64,000 nucleotides of DNA, taken from an uncultured bacterium. Its GTDB lineage: Bacteria > Joyebacterota > Joyebacteria > Joyebacterales > Joyebacteraceae. Within the stretch, counting starts at the first letter, position 1. Each line of letters begins with the position of its first letter. Shown here in pieces: positions 16,424-41,689 of the stretch. Location of the stretch: contig CAYNQF010000001.1 in assembly GCA_964399265.1 (NCBI GenBank), positions 1,195 through 65,194 on the forward strand, written 5' to 3'. The position numbers and the translations under genes are program-made. The notes under the pieces were generated by a model, which was not told the DNA's origin, did not search any database, and saw nothing but the letters and a program-made list of their open reading frames with translations.

Positions 16424-16663
16424 ATGAAGAGCGAGCAGGCAGCAGCCAGTCTGGACATGACGGGTTACTTCTGCCCCGAACCGGTCGTCCGTACGAACGA
16501 GGAGATTTCGAACGTCGGAGTCGGCGAGATCCTCGAAGTTACGGCGGACGACCCTTCATCCAAGCCGGACATCGAGAGTTGGGCCAGGAGAACGGGCCAC
16601 GAGCTGGTTTCGGTCGAGAACGATGACGGCGTGTTCAGGTTCCTGATCCGTCGGACGAAATAG
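16424..16663 (+). CDS. tusA: TusA-family sulfurtransferase (CPxP motif)
   Basis: YFCPEPVV motif. 79 aa with a two-layer alpha/beta pattern typical of TusA/SirA. Confidence 0.8.
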   Translation: MKSEQAAASLDMTGYFCPEPVVRTNEEISNVGVGEILEVTADDPSSKPDIESWARRTGHELVSVENDDGVFRFLIRRTK

Positions 16664-16843
16664 AGATATCGGTATACGCGTTTGCTATGGTGGGGGCGCA
16701 ATGTCCGAGATCGACCTGCGGCAGTTCGGGGGACACCGCTAAGTCGTGACCGGTGCGCCCCACTGTAGCGCTATGGGGCCGCGTACGGCGCCGCGACGAC
16801 AGACGAGAGCGCGCCCGCGCGGGAGCAGATTGGAGGAATGACA

Positions 16844-17212
16844 ATGGCCGAACGCAAGCGTATGCTCTACGTCCAGGCGTCGGGTATAGACACGCCCACG
16901 AGGCTCTACTCGCCGGTCGTGCTGGCCACGGTCGCGAAGTCGATGGACATGGACGCGACGGTCTACTTCCTGGGCCAGGGCATCACGGTCGTCAAGGCGG
17001 GGGAGGCCGACAAGATCAAGATCGGCGACTTTCCTGTCCTGTCGGATGTGATTGCCCGGGCCATGAAGGCGGGCGTGGAGTTCAAGGTGTGCGACCAGAG
17101 TTCCAGGCTGATGGGTCTCTCGAGCGGAGACTACATCGACGGCGTCGAGATAGTCGGTGCGGCCACGCTGAACGACCTGACGCTCGACGCTGACGGCGTG
17201 CTCTGCTTCTAG
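16844..17212 (+). CDS. DsrE/DsrF-like sulfur-relay family protein
   Basis: ~120 aa with the DsrE-like pattern (VYFLGQGITVV ... conserved Cys in FKVCDQS). ATG 16844 sits 6 nt after GGAGGA; ATG 16838 is too close to the RBS. Confidence 0.65.
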   Translation: MAERKRMLYVQASGIDTPTRLYSPVVLATVAKSMDMDATVYFLGQGITVVKAGEADKIKIGDFPVLSDVIARAMKAGVEFKVCDQSSRLMGLSSGDYIDGVEIVGAATLNDLTLDADGVLCF

Positions 17213-17247
17213 CTCGTGCATCAGCATTCAAGACGGAGGTCGTCCCC

Positions 17248-18444
17248 GTGTTCAAGGGTTTCCTCGACTATCAGTCCGGCTCGCCCGTCGACCCGCGGGT
17301 CGTCGAGGCGATGCTCCCGTACATGACCGAGCGCCATGGCAATCCCGCCATGCTTCACTCAGTCGGTGACATGAGTCGCCAGGCCGTGGAGGCCGCGCGC
17401 GCTCAGGTCGCCTCTTTCATATCGGCAGACCCCACGGAGATCTGCTTCACGTCAGGCGCCACTGAGGCCAACAACATGGCCCTGAAGGGCGCCGCCCTCA
17501 GGCTGCGCAAGAAGGGCAATCACATCGTCTCGAGCGTCATCGAACATCGCTCGATCATCACTCCTCTCAAGTACCTCCAGCGCGAGGGATTCGAGGTGAC
17601 GTCCGTGCCGGTCGACCGCGACGCGTTCGTCGACCCGGCGGCCGTCAGGGACGCGATTCGCGACGACACGATCCTGGTCTCGATCGGCATGGCCAACAAC
17701 GAGGTCGGAACGATTCAGGCCGCGGGCGAGATCGCGTCGATAGCACGCGAAAAGGGCGTGTTGTTCCACACCGACGCCGTTGCCGCAGAGGCGTGGATCC
17801 CGATCGACGTCAAGACGCTCCCGTTCGACCTCGTCACGCTTTCCTCCAACGATGTGTACGGACCCAAGGGCATGGGCGCACTCTATATAAGGAAGGGCAC
17901 GCGCATCGAGGCCATGATCCACGGCGGGGGGCAGGAGAGCGGGCTTCGCTCGGGCAGCGAGAACGTGCCGGGCATCGTCGGTTTCGGGAAGGCGGCCGAG
18001 CTGGCCGCGGCCGAGATGGAGTCGGACGTCGATAGGGTCAGGCCGATGCGGGACCGGTTGATCGACGAACTCCTGAAGATAGAGGACACGACGCTCAACG
18101 GGCCGCGCGAACGCAGACTTCCGGGGAACGCAAACATCCGGTTCGCCTACATTGAGGGAGAAGGATTGGTCCTCTTGCTCGACATGGAGGGCATCCAGGT
18201 AGCGAGCGGATCCGCGTGCTCGACGAAGACGCTGGAGCCCTCCTACGTCCAGATCGCGATGGGCATCAGGCACGAGCAGGCGCATGGCTCGCTCGAGTTC
18301 TCGCTCGGCCGCTGGACGACCGACGAGGACATAGACATGGTCCTGCAGGCGCTGCCGTCCATCGTGGACCGCTTGAGAAAGATGTCGGCGTTTAGGCCGG
18401 GCATGGAGTACGATAAGGACGAGTTCCGGAAGCACGAGCACTAG
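17248..18444 (+). CDS. IscS/NifS-like class-V aminotransferase-fold protein lacking the PLP-binding lysine (SSND in place of SGHK); catalytic-loop Cys retained (SGSACS)
   Basis: Collinear with IscS along its whole length. At the Schiff-base position the sequence reads DLVTLSSNDVYGPKGMGALY versus the canonical SFSGHKIYGPKG. GTG start with a GGAGG RBS. Confidence 0.8.
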   Translation: MFKGFLDYQSGSPVDPRVVEAMLPYMTERHGNPAMLHSVGDMSRQAVEAARAQVASFISADPTEICFTSGATEANNMALKGAALRLRKKGNHIVSSVIEHRSIITPLKYLQREGFEVTSVPVDRDAFVDPAAVRDAIRDDTILVSIGMANNEVGTIQAAGEIASIAREKGVLFHTDAVAAEAWIPIDVKTLPFDLVTLSSNDVYGPKGMGALYIRKGTRIEAMIHGGGQESGLRSGSENVPGIVGFGKAAELAAAEMESDVDRVRPMRDRLIDELLKIEDTTLNGPRERRLPGNANIRFAYIEGEGLVLLLDMEGIQVASGSACSTKTLEPSYVQIAMGIRHEQAHGSLEFSLGRWTTDEDIDMVLQALPSIVDRLRKMSAFRPGMEYDKDEFRKHEH

Positions 18445-18504: not shown

Positions 18505-18897
18505 ATGAACGAGGTTACCCCGAGCGTTCCGCCGCAGTCGGGCGGAGATGTTCAGTTCGTGCGTGAAGTGAGCGCGCCGCTCTATGCGGCCAGGGGCTGG
18601 ATGAAGCTCGTCGGCGTGCTCATGATCATCTATGGCGCGCTGATGGCCCTGACCATCGTCGGGATCATCGTGTGCTGGCTGCCGATCTGGATCGGCGTCC
18701 TGCTGCTGCGTGCCGCCAGCTCGGCAGAGATGGCACAGGTCTCCGGAGACAAGTTCCAGCTCGTCGAGTCGATGACGAAGCTCAAGACGTACTTCACCAT
18801 CTACGGCATTCTCGCCCTCGTCGGGCTGATCGCGGCCGCCATCGCTCTCATGGTGGGCGGGCTGGGCGCCATTACCGAGCTCATCCTGAACCGCTGA
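18505..18897 (+). CDS. small polytopic membrane protein (DUF-type, unknown function)
   Basis: GGAGG RBS then ATG; 3-4 predicted TM helices. A strong terminator follows the gene. Confidence 0.55.
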   Translation: MNEVTPSVPPQSGGDVQFVREVSAPLYAARGWMKLVGVLMIIYGALMALTIVGIIVCWLPIWIGVLLLRAASSAEMAQVSGDKFQLVESMTKLKTYFTIYGILALVGLIAAAIALMVGGLGAITELILNR

Positions 18898-18926
18898 CCG
18901 TACATGTGAGACGAGTTCGTCTTTGG

Positions 18927-18959
18927 GGCCGCCGGCTCGCTTCCGGCGGCCCATTCTTC
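18927..18959 (+). terminator. rho-independent terminator: 10-bp stem GGGCCGCCGG / CCGGCGGCCC, 7-nt loop, T-rich tail
   Basis: Perfect inverted repeat at 18927-18936 / 18943-18952, followed by ATTCTTCTTGCATTT. Confidence 0.7.
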
Positions 18960-18988: not shown

Positions 18989-19018
18989 GGCCAAGTATAC
19001 CCAGAACGGAGGTTGCGG

Positions 19019-19378
19019 ATGAACGAGGGGATAAGGCAGCGATACGAGGCCAGGGCCGGCGTCATGAAGGCGCTTGCGCACCCCAGCCGGCTCTACATCG
19101 TGGACGAGCTGTCGAGGGGCGAGAGGTGCGTCCACGAGCTTACCGACGCCATCGGCTCGGACATGTCGACCGTGTCAAAGCACCTGGGTGTCCTCAGGAC
19201 GGCCGGGATCGTGCGAGACGAGAAGCGCGGTTCGGAGGTCTACTACTCGCTCCGAATGGCATGCGTGCTCGACTTCTTCGGGTGTCTGGAGGCGGTCATG
19301 AACGGTGGCGATGCGGTGTCGTGCGCGTCTGCGGCGCGCGAGCCCGCGTCGACGCCACGGGCCGGGAGGACGACGTGA
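19019..19378 (+). CDS. ArsR/SmtB-family metalloregulatory transcriptional repressor
   Basis: wHTH signature HPSRLYIVDELSRGERCVHEL...VSKHLGVL. GGAGG RBS 9 nt upstream of ATG 19019. Stop overlaps the next start (TGATG). Confidence 0.85.
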   Translation: MNEGIRQRYEARAGVMKALAHPSRLYIVDELSRGERCVHELTDAIGSDMSTVSKHLGVLRTAGIVRDEKRGSEVYYSLRMACVLDFFGCLEAVMNGGDAVSCASAAREPASTPRAGRTT

Positions 19379-19860
19379 TGGCATTGACTTCGAGGCCCAC
19401 GCGGGGCGCGGCGACCGCGCTTGGTTTCGTCCTTGTCGCACTCGTCGCTCTGGCGCTGCTCGTGGGCTGCGGTGACACGGAGAAGGCGGCCGAGACCTCG
19501 GCCAGCGCCGGGTCCGGCGAGGCGCCCGGGCCGGCGAACGCCGGAAAGGCGTCCGAGTCGAATGCCGAGACGGCCGCGCTTCCGACGCTCCTCGACCTCG
19601 GGTCCGACAAGTGCGTTCCGTGCAAGGCAATGATGCCGATCATCGCGGAGATGCACGACACCTTCGCGGGGAAGCTGTCCGTGGAGTTCATCGACGTATG
19701 GAAGGACAGGGAGGCCGGGCAGAAGTACGGGGTGAAGGTGATCCCGACGCAAATCTTCCTCGACGCCGACGGGAACGAACTCTTCCGTCACCAGGGCTTC
19801 TTCTCGAGAGACGACATTCTGGCAAAGTGGCGGGAGCTGGGCTACGACTTCGGGCGGTAG
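19378..19860 (+). CDS. thioredoxin-fold lipoprotein (CVPC active site)
   Basis: Lipobox LLVGCGD. CVPCK CxxC motif with the cis-Pro motif VIPTQIF. GGGAGGA RBS. Confidence 0.7.
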   Translation: MALTSRPTRGAATALGFVLVALVALALLVGCGDTEKAAETSASAGSGEAPGPANAGKASESNAETAALPTLLDLGSDKCVPCKAMMPIIAEMHDTFAGKLSVEFIDVWKDREAGQKYGVKVIPTQIFLDADGNELFRHQGFFSRDDILAKWRELGYDFGR

Positions 19861-19884
19861 TCCGGCGGACGCCGGAGGTGAGAA

Positions 19885-20583
19885 GTGGTTGAGCTCTTCT
19901 CGACACTGAGCAGAGCCGTTGAGGGCGCTCCGGCAGTGGCGCTCGCGGCGTCGCTCGCGTGGGGCGTCCTGAGCGTCGTCCTGTCGCCCTGTCATCTCGC
20001 GAGCATCCCTCTCATCGTCGGGTTCATAGACGGGCAGGGGCGCATCTCGACGCGGAGGGCGTTTGGGATATCGCTTCTGTTCTCCGTCGGGATCCTGGCC
20101 ACCATCGCCGCGATCGGTGTGGCCACCGCCGTGGCCGGCAGAATGATCGGAGACCTAGGCCGCTGGGCCAACTACGGTGTAGCGATCATCTTCTTCGCCG
20201 TCGGACTGCACCTGCTCGGCCTTATCCCGATGCCGTGGTCGGGCCCCGGGCGTGTCGGCATGAGGCGGAGGGGTGCGCTCGCCGCCTTCGTGCTGGGGCT
20301 CGTGTTCGGCGTCGCCCTGGGGCCGTGCACGTTCGCATATATGGCTCCGATGCTGGCCGTTACCCTGCGGGTTGCTGCGACGAGTCTCGCCTACGGAGCG
20401 CTCTTGCTACTGGCGTACGGCGTCGGGCACTGCTCTGTCATCGTCCTGGCGGGCACGTTCACGGAGGTCGTGCAGAGATACCTGAACTGGACGGAGCGGT
20501 CCAGAGGCGCCGTCGTGCTCAGGAAGGTGTGCGGAGCGCTCGTGATGGTGGGCGGGGTATACCTTCTCATTACGGCGCACTAG
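19885..20583 (+). CDS. ccdA: CcdA/DsbD-like transmembrane thiol:disulfide electron-transfer protein
   Basis: Six TM segments with conserved Cys in TM1 (VVLSPCHLASIP). GTG start with a GGAGGTG RBS. Confidence 0.7.
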   Translation: MVELFSTLSRAVEGAPAVALAASLAWGVLSVVLSPCHLASIPLIVGFIDGQGRISTRRAFGISLLFSVGILATIAAIGVATAVAGRMIGDLGRWANYGVAIIFFAVGLHLLGLIPMPWSGPGRVGMRRRGALAAFVLGLVFGVALGPCTFAYMAPMLAVTLRVAATSLAYGALLLLAYGVGHCSVIVLAGTFTEVVQRYLNWTERSRGAVVLRKVCGALVMVGGVYLLITAH

Positions 20584-20593
20584 GGAGAGTCGC

Positions 20594-21892
20594 TTGAACT
20601 GGAAGATCGAGTGGAAGCCGCTCCTCATCATGCTCGCCGTCTTCCTGGCGGCGTTCAACCTGCCGGTCGGAACGGCGAGGTTCGACAATGCGCTCGTCGA
20701 GGCGTTCGCCCTCGTGAAGTGGTACGCGCGCGAGCACGTGGTCCTGTGTCTGCTGCCCGCCTTCCTCATAGCCGGGGCCATCGCCGCCTTCGTGCGCAAG
20801 GAATCGGTGATGAAGTACCTCGGCGCACGAGCGCCGAAGCCGCTCGCGTACGGTGTCGCCTCCGTATCCGGGTCGATCCTCGCTGTCTGTTCCTGCACTG
20901 TGCTGCCGCTCTTCGCGGGCATATACAGGATGGGGGCCGGCCTGGGACCGGCCAGCGCGTTCCTCTACTCGGGTCCCGCGATCAACGTGCTCGCCATCAT
21001 ACTGACGGCCCGCGTGCTCGGGCCCGAGCTGGGCCTCGCCAGGGCCCTGGGTGCGATCGGGTTCAGCGTGGTCATAGGACTTCTCATGCACGTCATCTTC
21101 CGTAAGGAGGAACTCGAGAAGGCCGACGCGCAGATGGCGATGCCGGAGCCCGAGCCCACGAGGCCGCTCTGGCAGAACGGCGTCTACTTCGCGATCATGG
21201 TGGCGATCCTCGTCTTCGCCAACTGGGGCAAGCCGTCGGCTCCGGACGGGCTCTGGGCCGCCGTCTATTCGGCCAAATGGGCTATTACCTCGCTTCTCGG
21301 CGTCGCGTTCGGCGTCGTCCTCATCCTGTGGTTCCGTTTGTCCGTGATGCGCGCGATGCTCGCGGCTCTGCCGCCCGTCGCGCTCGCGCTGCTGCTCCCG
21401 GGACAGCCGATCCTCGCCTTCGGCGCGGCCGTGGTCGGGCTCGGTGTCATCACCAGCACCGCCGGCGGAGAGATGGGCGAGTGGTTCGAATCGAGCTGGG
21501 GGTTCGCGAAGCAGATACTGCCGCTGCTCCTGATCGGCGTCATCGTGGCCGGACTGCTCCTGGGGAGGCCCGGACACCAGGGGCTGATTCCCTCCGAGTG
21601 GGTGGCGCGCTCGGTGGGCGGGAACTCGCTCGGCGCGAACCTCTTTGCATCGGTCGCGGGCGCGTTCATGTACTTCGCGACGCTCACTGAGGTGCCCATC
21701 CTGCAGGGGCTCATCGGCAGTGGCATGGGCAAGGGGCCGGCGCTGGCGTTACTGCTGGCGGGTCCGGCGCTGTCGCTTCCTAACATGCTCGTCATCAGAA
21801 GCATCATGGGAACTAAGAAGACGCTCGTGTTCGTAGGGTTGGTCGTCGCCATGGCCACGGTGACGGGGATGCTGTACGGCAGGTTCTTCTGA
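20594..21892 (+). CDS. permease of the UPF0718/DUF318 (YraQ-like) family
   Basis: Polytopic membrane protein with the paired-repeat architecture typical of DUF318. TTG start at 20594 after GGGAGAG. Commonly paired with the small thioredoxin-like protein that follows. Confidence 0.65.
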   Translation: MNWKIEWKPLLIMLAVFLAAFNLPVGTARFDNALVEAFALVKWYAREHVVLCLLPAFLIAGAIAAFVRKESVMKYLGARAPKPLAYGVASVSGSILAVCSCTVLPLFAGIYRMGAGLGPASAFLYSGPAINVLAIILTARVLGPELGLARALGAIGFSVVIGLLMHVIFRKEELEKADAQMAMPEPEPTRPLWQNGVYFAIMVAILVFANWGKPSAPDGLWAAVYSAKWAITSLLGVAFGVVLILWFRLSVMRAMLAALPPVALALLLPGQPILAFGAAVVGLGVITSTAGGEMGEWFESSWGFAKQILPLLLIGVIVAGLLLGRPGHQGLIPSEWVARSVGGNSLGANLFASVAGAFMYFATLTEVPILQGLIGSGMGKGPALALLLAGPALSLPNMLVIRSIMGTKKTLVFVGLVVAMATVTGMLYGRFF

Positions 21893-21903
21893 TGGAGGAA
21901 CAC

Positions 21904-22134
21904 ATGAAGGTTCAGATACTGGGTACCGGGTGCCCGAAGTGCAAGCAGCTCGAGGCGAACGCCCGCGCGGCGGTCGAAGAACTCGGCCTCGACTACGAGC
22001 TTGAGAAGGTCTCCGACATCAACGAGATCATGAAGTTCGGGATCATGATGACGCCCGGACTCGCCGTGGACGGTGTCGTGAAGTCGGCGGGGAAGCTCCT
22101 GTCGGTCGAGGATATCAAGAAGTTGCTCAAGTGA
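21904..22134 (+). CDS. small thioredoxin-like 'redox-active disulfide protein 2' family protein (CPKC)
   Basis: MKVQILGTGCPKCKQLE... is a textbook match to this ~77-aa family. GGAGGA RBS before ATG 21904. Confidence 0.8.
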   Translation: MKVQILGTGCPKCKQLEANARAAVEELGLDYELEKVSDINEIMKFGIMMTPGLAVDGVVKSAGKLLSVEDIKKLLK

Positions 22135-39133: not shown

Positions 39134-40816
39134 ATGAGCGGTGGCAAGGTCTTCACGTTCATCGTCGGAGGACGGGCGGGCGCCGGCGCCAAGAAGGCGG
39201 GGGCGGTGGCCTCCGACCTCTTCGCGTCGATGGGGCGACACGTCTTCCAGATGGACGATTACCAGAGCCTCATCAGGGGCGGTCACAACTTCATCGCTTC
39301 GAGCACGTCCATCGGCCCGGTGCTGAGCCACTACATGAAGGCCGATCTGGTGGTCGCGCTCGACAAACGCAGTCTGGAAACCCATCGCGACAACATCAGA
39401 AAGGGCGGAGTGCTCGTCTACAACTCGGACGAGGCCGACGAGGAAGCGGCCGAGGGCACCGCGGCCGGCACGGTCGTGGGCGTTCCCATGACGACCGAGG
39501 CCAAGAAGCACACCGACCCCGAGCTCAGGCTTGGCCTGGCCGGTCCGGCGTCGCTCGCCGCCGTGCTCGGAATGTCGCACGACGAACTCGACGAACTCAT
39601 CAGGAAGGGCTATCGGAGAGACCTCGAACAGAACTTGCCGTTCGCCGGAGCGGTCTACGACGCCGTTGCGGCGAAGGCGGCCGGTACGTTCTCATTGGAG
39701 AAGGGCGAGGTCGAGCTGCCGATGCTCACAGGGAACGAGGCCATCGCGCTCGGCGCGTGTGCTGCCGGGCTTGACCTCTACTTCGCGTATCCCATGACGC
39801 CGGCGAGCACCGTGCTCCACTTCCTGGCCGCCCACGACGAAGCGCTCGGCGTCGACGTCATGCACCCGGAGAGCGAGATCGCAGCGATCAACATCGCGCT
39901 CGGCGCCGCGGCGATGGGAGCGCGGGCGATGGTGGGAACGAGCGGCGGCGGATTCGCGCTCATGGAAGAGGCCTTCTCGCTCGCCGGCATGGCCGAGGTG
40001 CCGATACTCGCCGTTCTCTCCTCTCGACCCGGTCCCTCCACGGGCGTTCCGACCTACACCGAGCAGGCCGATCTCAGGTTCGCGTTGAGCCAGGGCCACG
40101 GCGACTTCGCGAGGGTCGTCGCGTCACCCGGCAGTGTGGAGGAAGCGTTTGCGCTGTCCGCTGAGATGCTGGCGCTCGCGTGGGAGTTCCAGGTGCCGTG
40201 CATTCTGCTCACCGAGAAGCACCTCTCCGAGAGCAGGGTGACCGCGGACATCGACCCGTCCTCCGCGGCCTGGGCGACGCCGGTCATGCACGAGGGAGGG
40301 GACTACAAGCGTTACAGAGAGACCGACAACGGAGTGTCGCCCCTCCTGTTCCCGCCGTCTGGCGAACTCATCAAGTGGACCAGCTACGAGCACGACGAAC
40401 TCGGACTGACCACCGAGAAAGCGACCGAGGTCGCTCGCATGCACGACAAGCGCGCCCGAAAACTGCCCGCCATCATCGAGAAGCTGAAGGGCATGACGAC
40501 GGTCAGGCGCTACGGGAACTCGGGGCCCACCATCGTGACGTACGGCTCGACCACGCTGTCCGTACGCGAGGCGCTCCGCGCCTCCGGCATCGAGGCCACC
40601 GTGGTGCAGCCGGTCTATCTGCAACCGTTCCCTAAGTGGGAACTCAAGGACATCCGCGGCACGTCGCCGGTCGTCGTGGAGCAGAGCTGCAGCGGGCAGT
40701 TCGCCACTCTCCTGTCCGACAAGCTGGGGACAGAGCCCTCGGCCGTGATCAGGAAGTACGACGGACGACCCTTCGAGCCCGACGATCTGGCGGAGGAACT
40801 GCGTAAGGTCCTTTGA
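39134..40816 (+). CDS. korA: 2-oxoacid:ferredoxin oxidoreductase, fused gamma-alpha subunit
   Basis: N-terminal gamma-like domain, then an alpha domain with the TPP/transketolase-like fold (GNEAIALGA...YPMTP). GGGAGGAG RBS. Confidence 0.85.
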   Translation: MSGGKVFTFIVGGRAGAGAKKAGAVASDLFASMGRHVFQMDDYQSLIRGGHNFIASSTSIGPVLSHYMKADLVVALDKRSLETHRDNIRKGGVLVYNSDEADEEAAEGTAAGTVVGVPMTTEAKKHTDPELRLGLAGPASLAAVLGMSHDELDELIRKGYRRDLEQNLPFAGAVYDAVAAKAAGTFSLEKGEVELPMLTGNEAIALGACAAGLDLYFAYPMTPASTVLHFLAAHDEALGVDVMHPESEIAAINIALGAAAMGARAMVGTSGGGFALMEEAFSLAGMAEVPILAVLSSRPGPSTGVPTYTEQADLRFALSQGHGDFARVVASPGSVEEAFALSAEMLALAWEFQVPCILLTEKHLSESRVTADIDPSSAAWATPVMHEGGDYKRYRETDNGVSPLLFPPSGELIKWTSYEHDELGLTTEKATEVARMHDKRARKLPAIIEKLKGMTTVRRYGNSGPTIVTYGSTTLSVREALRASGIEATVVQPVYLQPFPKWELKDIRGTSPVVVEQSCSGQFATLLSDKLGTEPSAVIRKYDGRPFEPDDLAEELRKVL

Positions 40817-40843
40817 CGGAATCCTCCATGGGAGACGCCTGAA

Positions 40844-41689
40844 ATGACTAACAGAGACCTCGAAACCTACGCCGAGAACACGTGGTGTATGGGGTGCGGC
40901 AACTTCGGCATCCTGAACGCGGTCGGCGGCGCCGTGAAGCTTCTCGAGGAGCGGGGAGTTGGACGCGACCGTATCGTGATGACCGCCGGGATCGGGTGCC
41001 ATGCCAAGATCTTCGATTACGTGGCGCTGTCGGGGCTCTACTCGCTGCACGGACGCGCGATGGCGACGGCCCAGGGTATGAAGCTCGCAAACCCGGACCT
41101 CAAGGTCGTGGCGTTCTGCGGCGACGGAGACGCCTTCGGTGAGGGCGTCGCGCACATGATGCACGCCGCGAAGCGGAACGCGAACATCACCGTCGTCGTA
41201 CACGACAACGGCGTGTACGCGCTCACGACGGGGCAGCGCACTCCGACCAGTCCCCGCGGATTCGTGGGGCCCTCGACCCCTCACGGAAACCAGGAGGATC
41301 CGTGGAATCCTCTCGTGCTCATGCTCGAGGCCGGTGCGACCTTCGTCGCGAGGGGGTACTCGGGGAGGGTGGAGCAGCTGTCCGAGTTGATCGCCCAGGC
41401 GGTGGAGCACGACGGGTTCTCGTTCATCCAGGTCCTCCAGCCGAGCGTCACCTTTACCGACAGGTACGCCGAGTACAATGAGACGGTGAAGCCGCTCGAA
41501 GGCGGACCGCTTCCCTTCGACGAGGCGCTGGCGATGGCGCGGAAGACCGACGTGTTGCCCGTCGGCGTCTACTACCGCAGGAAGAAGACGCCGTACGAGA
41601 CCGAGCTCCTGGGGGAGCGCAACCCCTTCCGCGATCGCATGAGCCGGGAGGAGCGCATCGAGATGGTGAGAAAGGTGCTGGCCGGCTGA
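40844..41689 (+). CDS. korB: 2-oxoacid:ferredoxin oxidoreductase beta subunit (TPP-binding)
   Basis: CMGCGN motif and TPP-binding GDGD...N motif (GDGDAFGEGVAHMMHAAKRNANITVVVHDN). Confidence 0.85.
   Translation: MTNRDLETYAENTWCMGCGNFGILNAVGGAVKLLEERGVGRDRIVMTAGIGCHAKIFDYVALSGLYSLHGRAMATAQGMKLANPDLKVVAFCGDGDAFGEGVAHMMHAAKRNANITVVVHDNGVYALTTGQRTPTSPRGFVGPSTPHGNQEDPWNPLVLMLEAGATFVARGYSGRVEQLSELIAQAVEHDGFSFIQVLQPSVTFTDRYAEYNETVKPLEGGPLPFDEALAMARKTDVLPVGVYYRRKKTPYETELLGERNPFRDRMSREERIEMVRKVLAG

Follow-up and report, generated by a model that had tools for sequence, protein, structure and literature searches.

What can an IscS homologue do once it has lost the lysine that would hold its cofactor pyridoxal phosphate (PLP), and why are the genes of two sulfur carriers located in front of it? 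Both questions are raised by a stretch of 64,000 nt from an uncultured bacterium (contig CAYNQF010000001.1, G+C content 65%). This entire stretch is called the window below. Three co-directional open reading frames (ORFs) are found at positions 16424-18444 of the window, exactly where an earlier note, made from the letters of the sequence, had placed them. They encode a TusA-family protein, a DsrE-like protein and the Lys-less IscS homologue, here designated IscS(ND). The linkage of TusA and DsrE to this type of IscS has been conserved in phyla of both archaea and bacteria, and it is specific to the Lys-less clade. The three genes are:

16424-16663, plus strand: tusA, encoding a 79-aa sulfur carrier of the TusA family (Pfam TusA, E 4e-24)
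16838-17212, plus strand: dsrE-like gene, encoding a 124-aa, DsrE3-like sulfur carrier of the DsrE family (Pfam DsrE, E 1e-16)
17248-18444, plus strand: iscS(ND), encoding a 398-aa Lys-less IscS homologue (Aminotran_5 over the full length, E 1e-71)

Catalytic residues of IscS(ND)

IscS(ND) has the Aminotran_5 fold and is collinear with the known IscS structures. In the alignment with E. coli IscS (45% identity), the motif LSSNDVYGPKG is found at the site of SGHK(I)YGPKG. The SSND within it comprises aa 199-202 (nt 17842-17853). This places Asp202 at the position of the Schiff-base Lys206 and Asn201 at that of His205 (E. coli numbering), which is the exchange of His-Lys for Asn-Asp proposed in the earlier note. 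HMMER alignments run through the motif without a gap, both against the Lys-less structure from Archaeoglobus fulgidus and against Lys-containing structures. Another alignment register that would restore the Schiff-base Lys was considered as well. It is ruled out by the ungapped motif alignments to 4EB5 and to the Lys-type structures: no register offers a Lys at this position.

Two more residues of the active site are missing. HVDATQ is replaced by HTDAVAA (aa 174-180), in which Gln183, the contact to PLP O3', has become an Ala. This replacement had been recognized before. Not noticed until now was the loss of Arg354 (E. coli numbering), the residue for the substrate carboxylate, which is a Glu in the window protein. 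The persulfide Cys loop SGSACS is kept (aa 320-325; nt 18205-18222), as had also been stated, and its Cys324 corresponds to E. coli Cys328. All NCBIfam equivalogs for IscS/NifS remain below their cut-offs (TIGR03402, 480 < 530.75; NF010611, 432 < 548; TIGR02006, 423 < 643). With Lys206, His205, Gln183 and Arg354 gone, the sequence predicts a protein that cannot be a conventional PLP desulfurase, in agreement with the first reading of the locus.

Could this be a decaying pseudogene, or could the loss of the Lys be an artefact of assembly or sequencing? Nothing except the loss of the catalytic residues would speak for it. The ORF is intact and has its full length. Among the 120 closest database homologues (70-100% identity, chosen without regard to the motif), 119 from independent assemblies have SSND, and the remaining one has SSNE. 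Compared with L054, the closest relative (92% identical), the ratio of nonsynonymous to synonymous substitution rates (dN/dS) amounts to 0.065 for iscS(ND), 0.054 for tusA, 0.09 for dsrE and 0.135 for a fourth gene downstream, which encodes a DUF5362 protein. This means that all four genes of the operon are under strong purifying selection (dN/dS 0.05-0.14). The Lys loss is no artefact because 119 of 120 homologues share SSND and the dN/dS is as low as 0.065. Decay or artefact is refuted by the motif of the homologues, the dN/dS and the spread of the clade over archaea and bacteria, and its probability is negligible.

A pattern of conservation can also be seen in the former cofactor pocket. 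In 101 full-length members of the clade, Cys328 is invariant, and none has a Gln at position 183 or an Arg at position 354. The latter position is occupied by varied residues (L/E/Q/V/M). T76, H104, E156, D180 and S203, which belong to the former PLP pocket, are invariant in 101/101 members, and Asn-Asp is nearly invariant. Such a conserved pocket, despite the impossibility of binding PLP covalently, hints at a structural role or at a new ligand or metal. Since this conservation exceeds what would be expected of a dead site, it might be argued that IscS(ND) is still an enzyme which uses non-covalent PLP, another cofactor or a metal in the old pocket for a different reaction. However, the A. 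fulgidus protein has been reported to lack desulfurase activity (PMC7585200), the residues in place of Arg354 vary, and nested variants carry SA, GP or NS at positions 205/206. An enzymatic function of this kind is therefore considered very improbable.

The Lys-less clade and its gene cassette

The earlier note had pointed to the PLP-lysine-free IscS of A. fulgidus as a parallel. This protein is indeed the best match of IscS(ND) in the PDB (4EB5/4EB7/4HVK; E 6e-137, 55% identity over 375 aa) and has the identical SSND. The second PDB match, 4R5F, is an engineered D199K variant of the same protein. To judge from these matches, the parallel goes beyond analogy and is a true family relationship. 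A. fulgidus IscS, the characterised member of the clade, has no desulfurase activity, its catalytic lysine being replaced by an aspartate, and in the structure of the (IscS-IscU)2 complex one of its Cys residues is a ligand of the [2Fe-2S] cluster on IscU (PMC7585200, PMC13066941). IscS1 of Methanosarcina acetivorans likewise lacks the lysine (PMC7585200, PMC13066941). The window protein shares with A. fulgidus IscS (IscS2) the motif SSND(I/V)YGPKG, the loss of Gln183 and Arg354 and the retained Cys loop, and both fall into the same clade of a neighbour-joining tree. In contrast to the A. fulgidus protein, it is bacterial, belongs to a separate deep branch and has a C-terminal extension. It can thus be assigned, by sequence, to the known A. 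fulgidus-type clade of Lys-less IscS proteins as a new bacterial member.

For the neighbour-joining tree, the columns of the motif were taken out of the alignment. All SSND sequences, together with three nested Lys-less variants having SA, GP or NS, form a grouping free of Lys-type sequences; bootstrap support is moderate (70/100). Within this grouping, the window protein and those of L054, L060, L061, L080 and L110 constitute the separate deep branch with about 55% identity to the other clade members (bootstrap 100/100, tested with the window, L054, L060 and L110). The C-terminal extension of IscS(ND) is a property of this lineage. Nevertheless, of the 111 positions with a conservation of at least 90% in the remaining members of the SSND clade, IscS(ND) of the window has retained 100. 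These include two segments that contact IscU in E. coli, the helix YIEGE and, in the C-terminal part, RLRxxS. Named homologues are labelled Candidatus Eisenbacteria or Effluviviaceae, and this is most likely the phylum from which the window originates.

To which extent the clade is distributed was determined in a census with one genome per species, using a DNA pattern for SSND[IVM]YGP[KR]G-x-G. At least 120 loci were obtained, and all counts are lower bounds. Among the matches listed, about 90 are archaeal (Bathyarchaeia, Asgard lineages, Hadarchaeota, Thermoplasmatota, methanogens and Archaeoglobi) and about 30 bacterial (Actinomycetota/Thermoleophilia, Deltaproteobacteria/Thermodesulfobacteriota, Aminicenantes, Stahlbacteria, Spirochaetota and Eisenbacteria). 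The SSND protein type is already known, common in archaea and present in several bacterial phyla. Hence, with at least 120 species-level matches and about 30 bacterial ones among those listed, the family is neither rare nor special to the source bacterium. In a search of 1.84 billion representatives clustered at 50% identity, the SSND clade falls into essentially one representative, and about 12 further Lys-less representatives were found. Eight of the representatives (P0130, P0150, P0155, P0164, P0179, P0188, P0235 and P0268) are IscS-family proteins outside the SSND clade in which the Schiff-base Lys is replaced by M, T, R, L or S. Some of these non-SSND representatives keep Gln183 and Arg354. 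Their sequences suggest independent losses of catalysis within the IscS family.

Every named homologue seen (P0006-P0120) carries the designation 'cysteine desulfurase' or 'aminotransferase class V-fold PLP-dependent enzyme'. These names are probably a systematic misannotation. As a consequence, metabolic reconstructions from metagenome-assembled genomes would wrongly infer a cysteine-based mobilisation of sulfur.

Both partner proteins have the residues of sulfur carriers. The active-site residue of TusA is Cys17, part of a CPEP motif (nt 16472-16483). The protein scores below the cut-offs of the NCBIfam equivalogs NF001423 (60 < 78 bits), which stands for E. coli TusA of the tRNA thiolation relay, and YedF (54 < 79 bits). 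The DsrE-like protein has its active-site Cys85 in VCDQS (nt 17090-17092). Its nearest solved structure is 3MC3 (Sulfolobus solfataricus SSO1125; E 4e-14), to which the active Cys can be aligned; the second Cys of 3MC3/DsrE3A is missing from the aligned segment. To DsrE2, it shows a weak sub-threshold match (30 < 210 bits), and it does not qualify for any named DsrE subgroup.

ORFs called in the 120 SSND loci listed were searched with TusA and DsrE of the window and with E. coli IscU. The commonest gene order is tusA-dsrE-iscS(ND)-iscU (35 complete cases), followed by tusA-iscS(ND)-iscU (26 cases). Most of the remaining patterns represent the same cassette, truncated where a tile or contig stops. 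Of the TusA proteins encoded in cassettes, 85 of 93 have CPxP; of the corresponding DsrE proteins, 62 of 64 have the active-site Cys. For a comparison, 119 loci with the Lys-type motif S[GA]HK were collected from metagenome contigs by an analogous pattern. Neighbours were counted in loci with enough flanking DNA, and TusA and DsrE were detected with profiles built from cassette members. Upstream of iscS, TusA was found in 82/90 evaluable SSND loci and DsrE in 57/90, whereas neither was present in the 67 evaluable Lys-type control loci (0/67 each). IscU follows downstream in 89/103 evaluable SSND loci vs 48/90 control loci. Individual loci display the same tendency: P0144, a nested Lys-less variant with SSA, is located in tusA-dsrE-iscS-iscU, and P0124, the nearest Lys-type relative, in iscR-iscS-iscU. 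In Archaeoglobus sp. (L078), tusA is found directly upstream of iscS-iscU. Compared with this locus, which has only tusA upstream and iscU after iscS, the window has tusA and dsrE upstream and the DUF5362 gene downstream. The operon link with TusA and DsrE, which the earlier note had seen in one genome, consequently holds across phyla. In the literature searched, no account of the tusA-dsrE-iscS(ND)-iscU linkage was found, although an earlier description may exist.

Three side observations concern the cassette. Just 3' of iscU, 21 loci from archaea and bacteria encode a flavoprotein of the Pyr_redox_2 type (E 5e-32) with a length of about 420 aa, e.g. at L030 3274-4539 (plus strand). There is none in the window. 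This flavoprotein is a candidate electron donor or persulfide/polysulfide reductase for the cassette. About half of the cassette IscU proteins have a length of approximately 260-270 aa and are composed of an N-terminal IscU domain and a C-terminal domain of about 130 aa. Examples are L045 5347-6129 (minus strand), L021 6740-7567 (plus), L036 1401-2195 (minus) and L001 5321-6118 (minus). Their hosts are Asgard archaea, Aminicenantes, Stahlbacteria, Deltaproteobacteria and Actinomycetota. The C-terminal domain lacks GxGxxG and bears a weak similarity to the domain that binds NAD(P)H in pyridine-nucleotide disulfide oxidoreductases (Pfam Pyr_redox, E ~2e-3). IscU1 of M. acetivorans (24 kDa) probably belongs to this long type. 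Finally, in 14 Asgard-archaeal loci, a gene for a corrinoid protein (B12-binding, DxHxxG) is located directly upstream of the cassette, e.g. at L067 4000-4650 (minus strand).

Proposed source and direction of the sulfur

We favour, with moderate confidence, a PLP-independent persulfide relay from DsrE/TusA to the Cys loop of IscS, which feeds Fe-S assembly or another sulfur acceptor. IscS(ND) would keep the IscS dimer fold and the mobile loop with Cys324 and would not form a persulfide from cysteine. Sulfane sulfur would come from an inorganic or low-molecular-weight source such as polysulfide, thiosulfate, or sulfide plus an oxidant. The DsrE3-like protein, TusA or both would load it on their active-site cysteines, and trans-persulfidation would then transfer it to the Cys loop of IscS(ND). 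In the ancestral and commonest form of the module, the acceptor would be the IscU encoded immediately downstream, so that Fe-S clusters could be built without a cysteine desulfurase. Where the Pyr_redox_2 gene follows the cassette, its product could deliver the reducing equivalents. In the window lineage, the acceptor would be IscU or another scaffold encoded elsewhere, or it would belong to a different sulfur-requiring pathway, because iscU is no longer adjacent. The loss of the catalytic residues, the membership in the family, the conserved, clade-specific linkage of the genes and the purifying selection are shown by the sequences, whereas we infer from where the sulfur comes, which way it flows and which acceptor receives it in the window lineage. 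Of the earlier proposal of a sulfur-relay or cluster-assembly module, for which function is inferred as well, the cluster-assembly part is less certain here than for the full cassette, as the canonical iscU is missing in the lineage.

A precedent for such a transfer is known from E. coli. There, a persulfide is passed from IscS Cys328 to TusA Cys19 (PDB 3LVJ). The same two families are involved, and the geometry from the Cys loop to the CPxP Cys may serve as a model. In E. coli, however, the sulfur is donated by a PLP-active IscS and accepted by TusA, and their genes are unlinked. As the IscS of the window cannot generate sulfur, sulfur must be expected to flow towards or past it, which would be opposite to the E. 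coli direction. DsrE-TusA sulfur-transferase cascades have been described in sulfur oxidisers (PMC11094781). The DsrE3/TusA carrier pairs associated with sHdr or Dsr (PDB 3MC3) resemble the window genes in that a DsrE-type protein and TusA are encoded in one operon. In contrast to them, the window protein lacks the second Cys of DsrE3A, and it is paired with an IscS homologue. With Pfam, no genes of the sHdr, Dsr, Sox or rhodanese type were found in the window. The IscS-homologue partner points to biosynthesis rather than to dissimilatory oxidation. Altogether, a dead IscS with TusA and DsrE coupled to it seems to be a variant of the sulfur relays already known, one that is undescribed in the literature searched.

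A further system to be compared is MIS, the minimal ISC system (MisS-MisU). Here, too, the IscS-family protein is of a two-gene type of archaea and anaerobes, and IscS1/IscU1 of M. acetivorans (MA0808/MA0807), in which IscS1 also lacks the PLP lysine, are counted among MIS. By definition, MIS consists of an active desulfurase together with a scaffold (PMC13066941). The window locus differs from this definition, as its desulfurase is dead and a scaffold gene is missing. TusA and DsrE are not named as MIS components in the searched literature. Where the minimal MIS and SMS systems obtain their sulfur, and which electron donors serve them, is described as unclear in reviews (PMC13066941). The TusA/DsrE linkage now names concrete candidate sulfur donors for the Fe-S clusters of desulfurase-dead anaerobes. 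Many loci additionally link a flavoprotein reductase and a reductase-like IscU extension, and the question can be tested with four small soluble proteins. While the protein type will not surprise a specialist, the conserved cassette provides a testable answer as to where the sulfur originates in a desulfurase-dead minimal ISC.

Several points weigh against the relay. Linkage gives no direction of sulfur transfer. In the window and the relatives examined, there is no iscU within 10 kb. The residues that form the TusA-IscS salt bridges in E. coli (TusA R27 and R31; IscS W45 and E49) are not conserved in the window proteins, and therefore the E. coli binding mode cannot be transferred by homology. 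The Lys-type control originates from another collection than the SSND loci (metagenome contigs vs species genomes), and the TusA and DsrE profiles were derived from cassette members. At two loci of one Eisenbacteria sublineage, L061 3812-5074 (minus strand) and L110 3921-5192 (plus strand), iscS(ND) directly follows the gene of an M50 peptidase as a stand-alone gene, and no tusA, dsrE or iscU is nearby. Because L061 and L110 keep iscS(ND) without tusA or dsrE, the role of IscS(ND) is not strictly dependent on adjacent partners. Moreover, in the published view of the A. fulgidus system, free sulfide suffices and IscS only supplies a ligand (PMC7585200).

This last view can be extended to the window. 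IscS(ND) would then be a scaffold partner only, which gives the fourth Cys ligand on IscU, and the sulfur would be free sulfide. TusA and DsrE would serve an unrelated purpose: They would buffer or detoxify reactive sulfane sulfur or handle thiosulfate, with no transfer to IscS(ND). The published model for A. fulgidus IscS (PMC7585200), the reported use of sulfide by MIS and SMS systems (PMC13066941) and the missing E. coli-type contact residues between TusA and IscS are in line with this explanation. Yet it leaves unexplained why TusA (91%) and DsrE (63%) accompany the Lys-less clade specifically and are absent from the Lys-type control, and why this linkage persists across archaeal and bacterial phyla. 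In addition, the window offers no IscU as a partner. A pure ligand donor appears unlikely.

The persulfide relay also permits a wider interpretation. Tentatively, and with less confidence than is due to the relay itself, tusA-dsrE-iscS(ND)-iscU may be regarded as a distinct, ancient and widespread Fe-S route of anaerobes, in which sulfur is provided as DsrE/TusA persulfide and the Lys-less IscS acts as a dedicated shuttle. Its hosts would comprise Bathyarchaeia, Asgard archaea, Hadarchaeota, methanogens, Archaeoglobi, Actinomycetota, Desulfobacterota, Aminicenantes and others. The former PLP pocket (His104, Asp180, Asn205 and Asp206) might have gained a new function in ligand binding. The window operon would then be derived from this cassette and would supply an acceptor that is either non-adjacent or of another kind.

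The IscU-less operon of the window lineage

Besides the three genes listed above, the following elements belong to the locus:

16684-16769, plus strand: conserved, rod-like RNA hairpin of 86 nt in the tusA-dsrE spacer
18505-18897, plus strand: gene for a small membrane protein of the DUF5362 family (Pfam DUF5362, E 7e-23)
18926-18952, plus strand: terminator-like GC-rich hairpin with 10 G-C pairs, followed by a T-rich tail

Each of tusA, dsrE and iscS(ND) is preceded by a ribosome-binding site of the GGAG type (AAGGAG upstream of tusA). The transcription unit most likely comprises tusA, dsrE, iscS(ND) and the DUF5362 gene, and the hairpin at 18926-18952 is likely to be the end of this transcript. 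The DUF5362 gene holds the fourth position, where the cassette has iscU. It follows iscS(ND) in L054, L060 and L121 and is missing in L122-L124. It is an accessory gene and the last one of the operon in the sublineage of the window.

Neither IscU nor SufC, SufS or a second IscS could be detected in the 64-kb window by tblastn and a Pfam search on all of its ~54 genes; SufBC was not found there either. In relatives with 73-82% protein identity, no iscU is located within 10 kb. The Eisenbacteria-type lineage carries a reduced form of the cassette, and this IscU-less form is a further derivative of it. A dead IscS that is kept under strong selection without its usual partner gene may have a role exceeding that of a ligand donor for IscU.

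One possibility would be that in this lineage the relay has been redirected from Fe-S assembly and that IscS(ND) is an adaptor which presents a persulfide for tRNA thiolation, molybdenum cofactor synthesis, thiocarboxylate carriers or the handling of sulfur or arsenic-sulfur species. The absence of iscU from the window and from the 10-kb flanks of the relatives, the deep branch with its own C-terminal extension and the role that E. coli IscS plays as a multi-acceptor hub agree with such a redirection. So does the neighbourhood: In all relatives examined, the operon adjoins ArsR-thioredoxin-CcdA-(ArsP)-Trx_3, with ArsC and Acr3 as the next genes in relatives. However, no acceptor gene (ThiI, MnmA, MoeB/MoaD, ThiS/ThiF) is present in the window, and the segments that contact IscU are still conserved. 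Furthermore, synteny also spans unrelated HAD, M50 and DUF3857 genes, and the ars-like adjacency may be nothing but inherited gene order. A redirected relay is considered decidedly unlikely.

The gene order of the lineage is as follows. Relatives share upstream genes for PPDK_N, two DUF3857 proteins, a protein of no known family, HAD and an M50 peptidase. These are followed by tusA, dsrE, iscS(ND), the DUF5362 gene (in some), ArsR, thioredoxin, CcdA, ArsP (in some) and Trx_3. In L121-L124, the cluster extends into an ArsC of the low-molecular-weight phosphatase type and an Acr3/SBF transporter. The window encodes ArsR, a lipoprotein thioredoxin, CcdA/DsbD_TM, an ArsP_1 permease and Trx_3 at 19013-22134 (plus strand), and here Trx_3 is followed by LexA instead of ArsC and Acr3/SBF. 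The ArsR-led cluster begins at 19013, past the terminator-like hairpin, and its adjacency to the operon is conserved in the phylum of the window only. A functional tie between the operon and the ArsR-thioredoxin-CcdA-ArsP cluster was considered and found to be unsupported, as the synteny is confined to one lineage and reaches unrelated genes.

The spacer between tusA and dsrE has an unusual length of 174 nt and contains the 86-nt hairpin. The hairpin is found at the equivalent position in L054, L080 and L121; L122 is devoid of it (27-nt spacer), and the spacers of L123 and L060 differ. RNAalifold predicts 31 base pairs, two of them with compensatory changes. The minimum free energy is -42.7 kcal/mol (z = -2.9). 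An Rfam run on the window and the spacer yielded no family match. The element occurs as a single copy in the window and was seen in three syntenic loci only. It might be involved in intra-operon processing or stability, or it might be a regulatory element.

At some distance from the operon, at 39134-41689 (plus strand), the window encodes a two-subunit 2-oxoacid:ferredoxin oxidoreductase (POR/POR_N plus TPP_enzyme_C). This Fe-S-dependent enzyme is typical of anaerobes and consistent with a low-oxygen lifestyle of the source organism.

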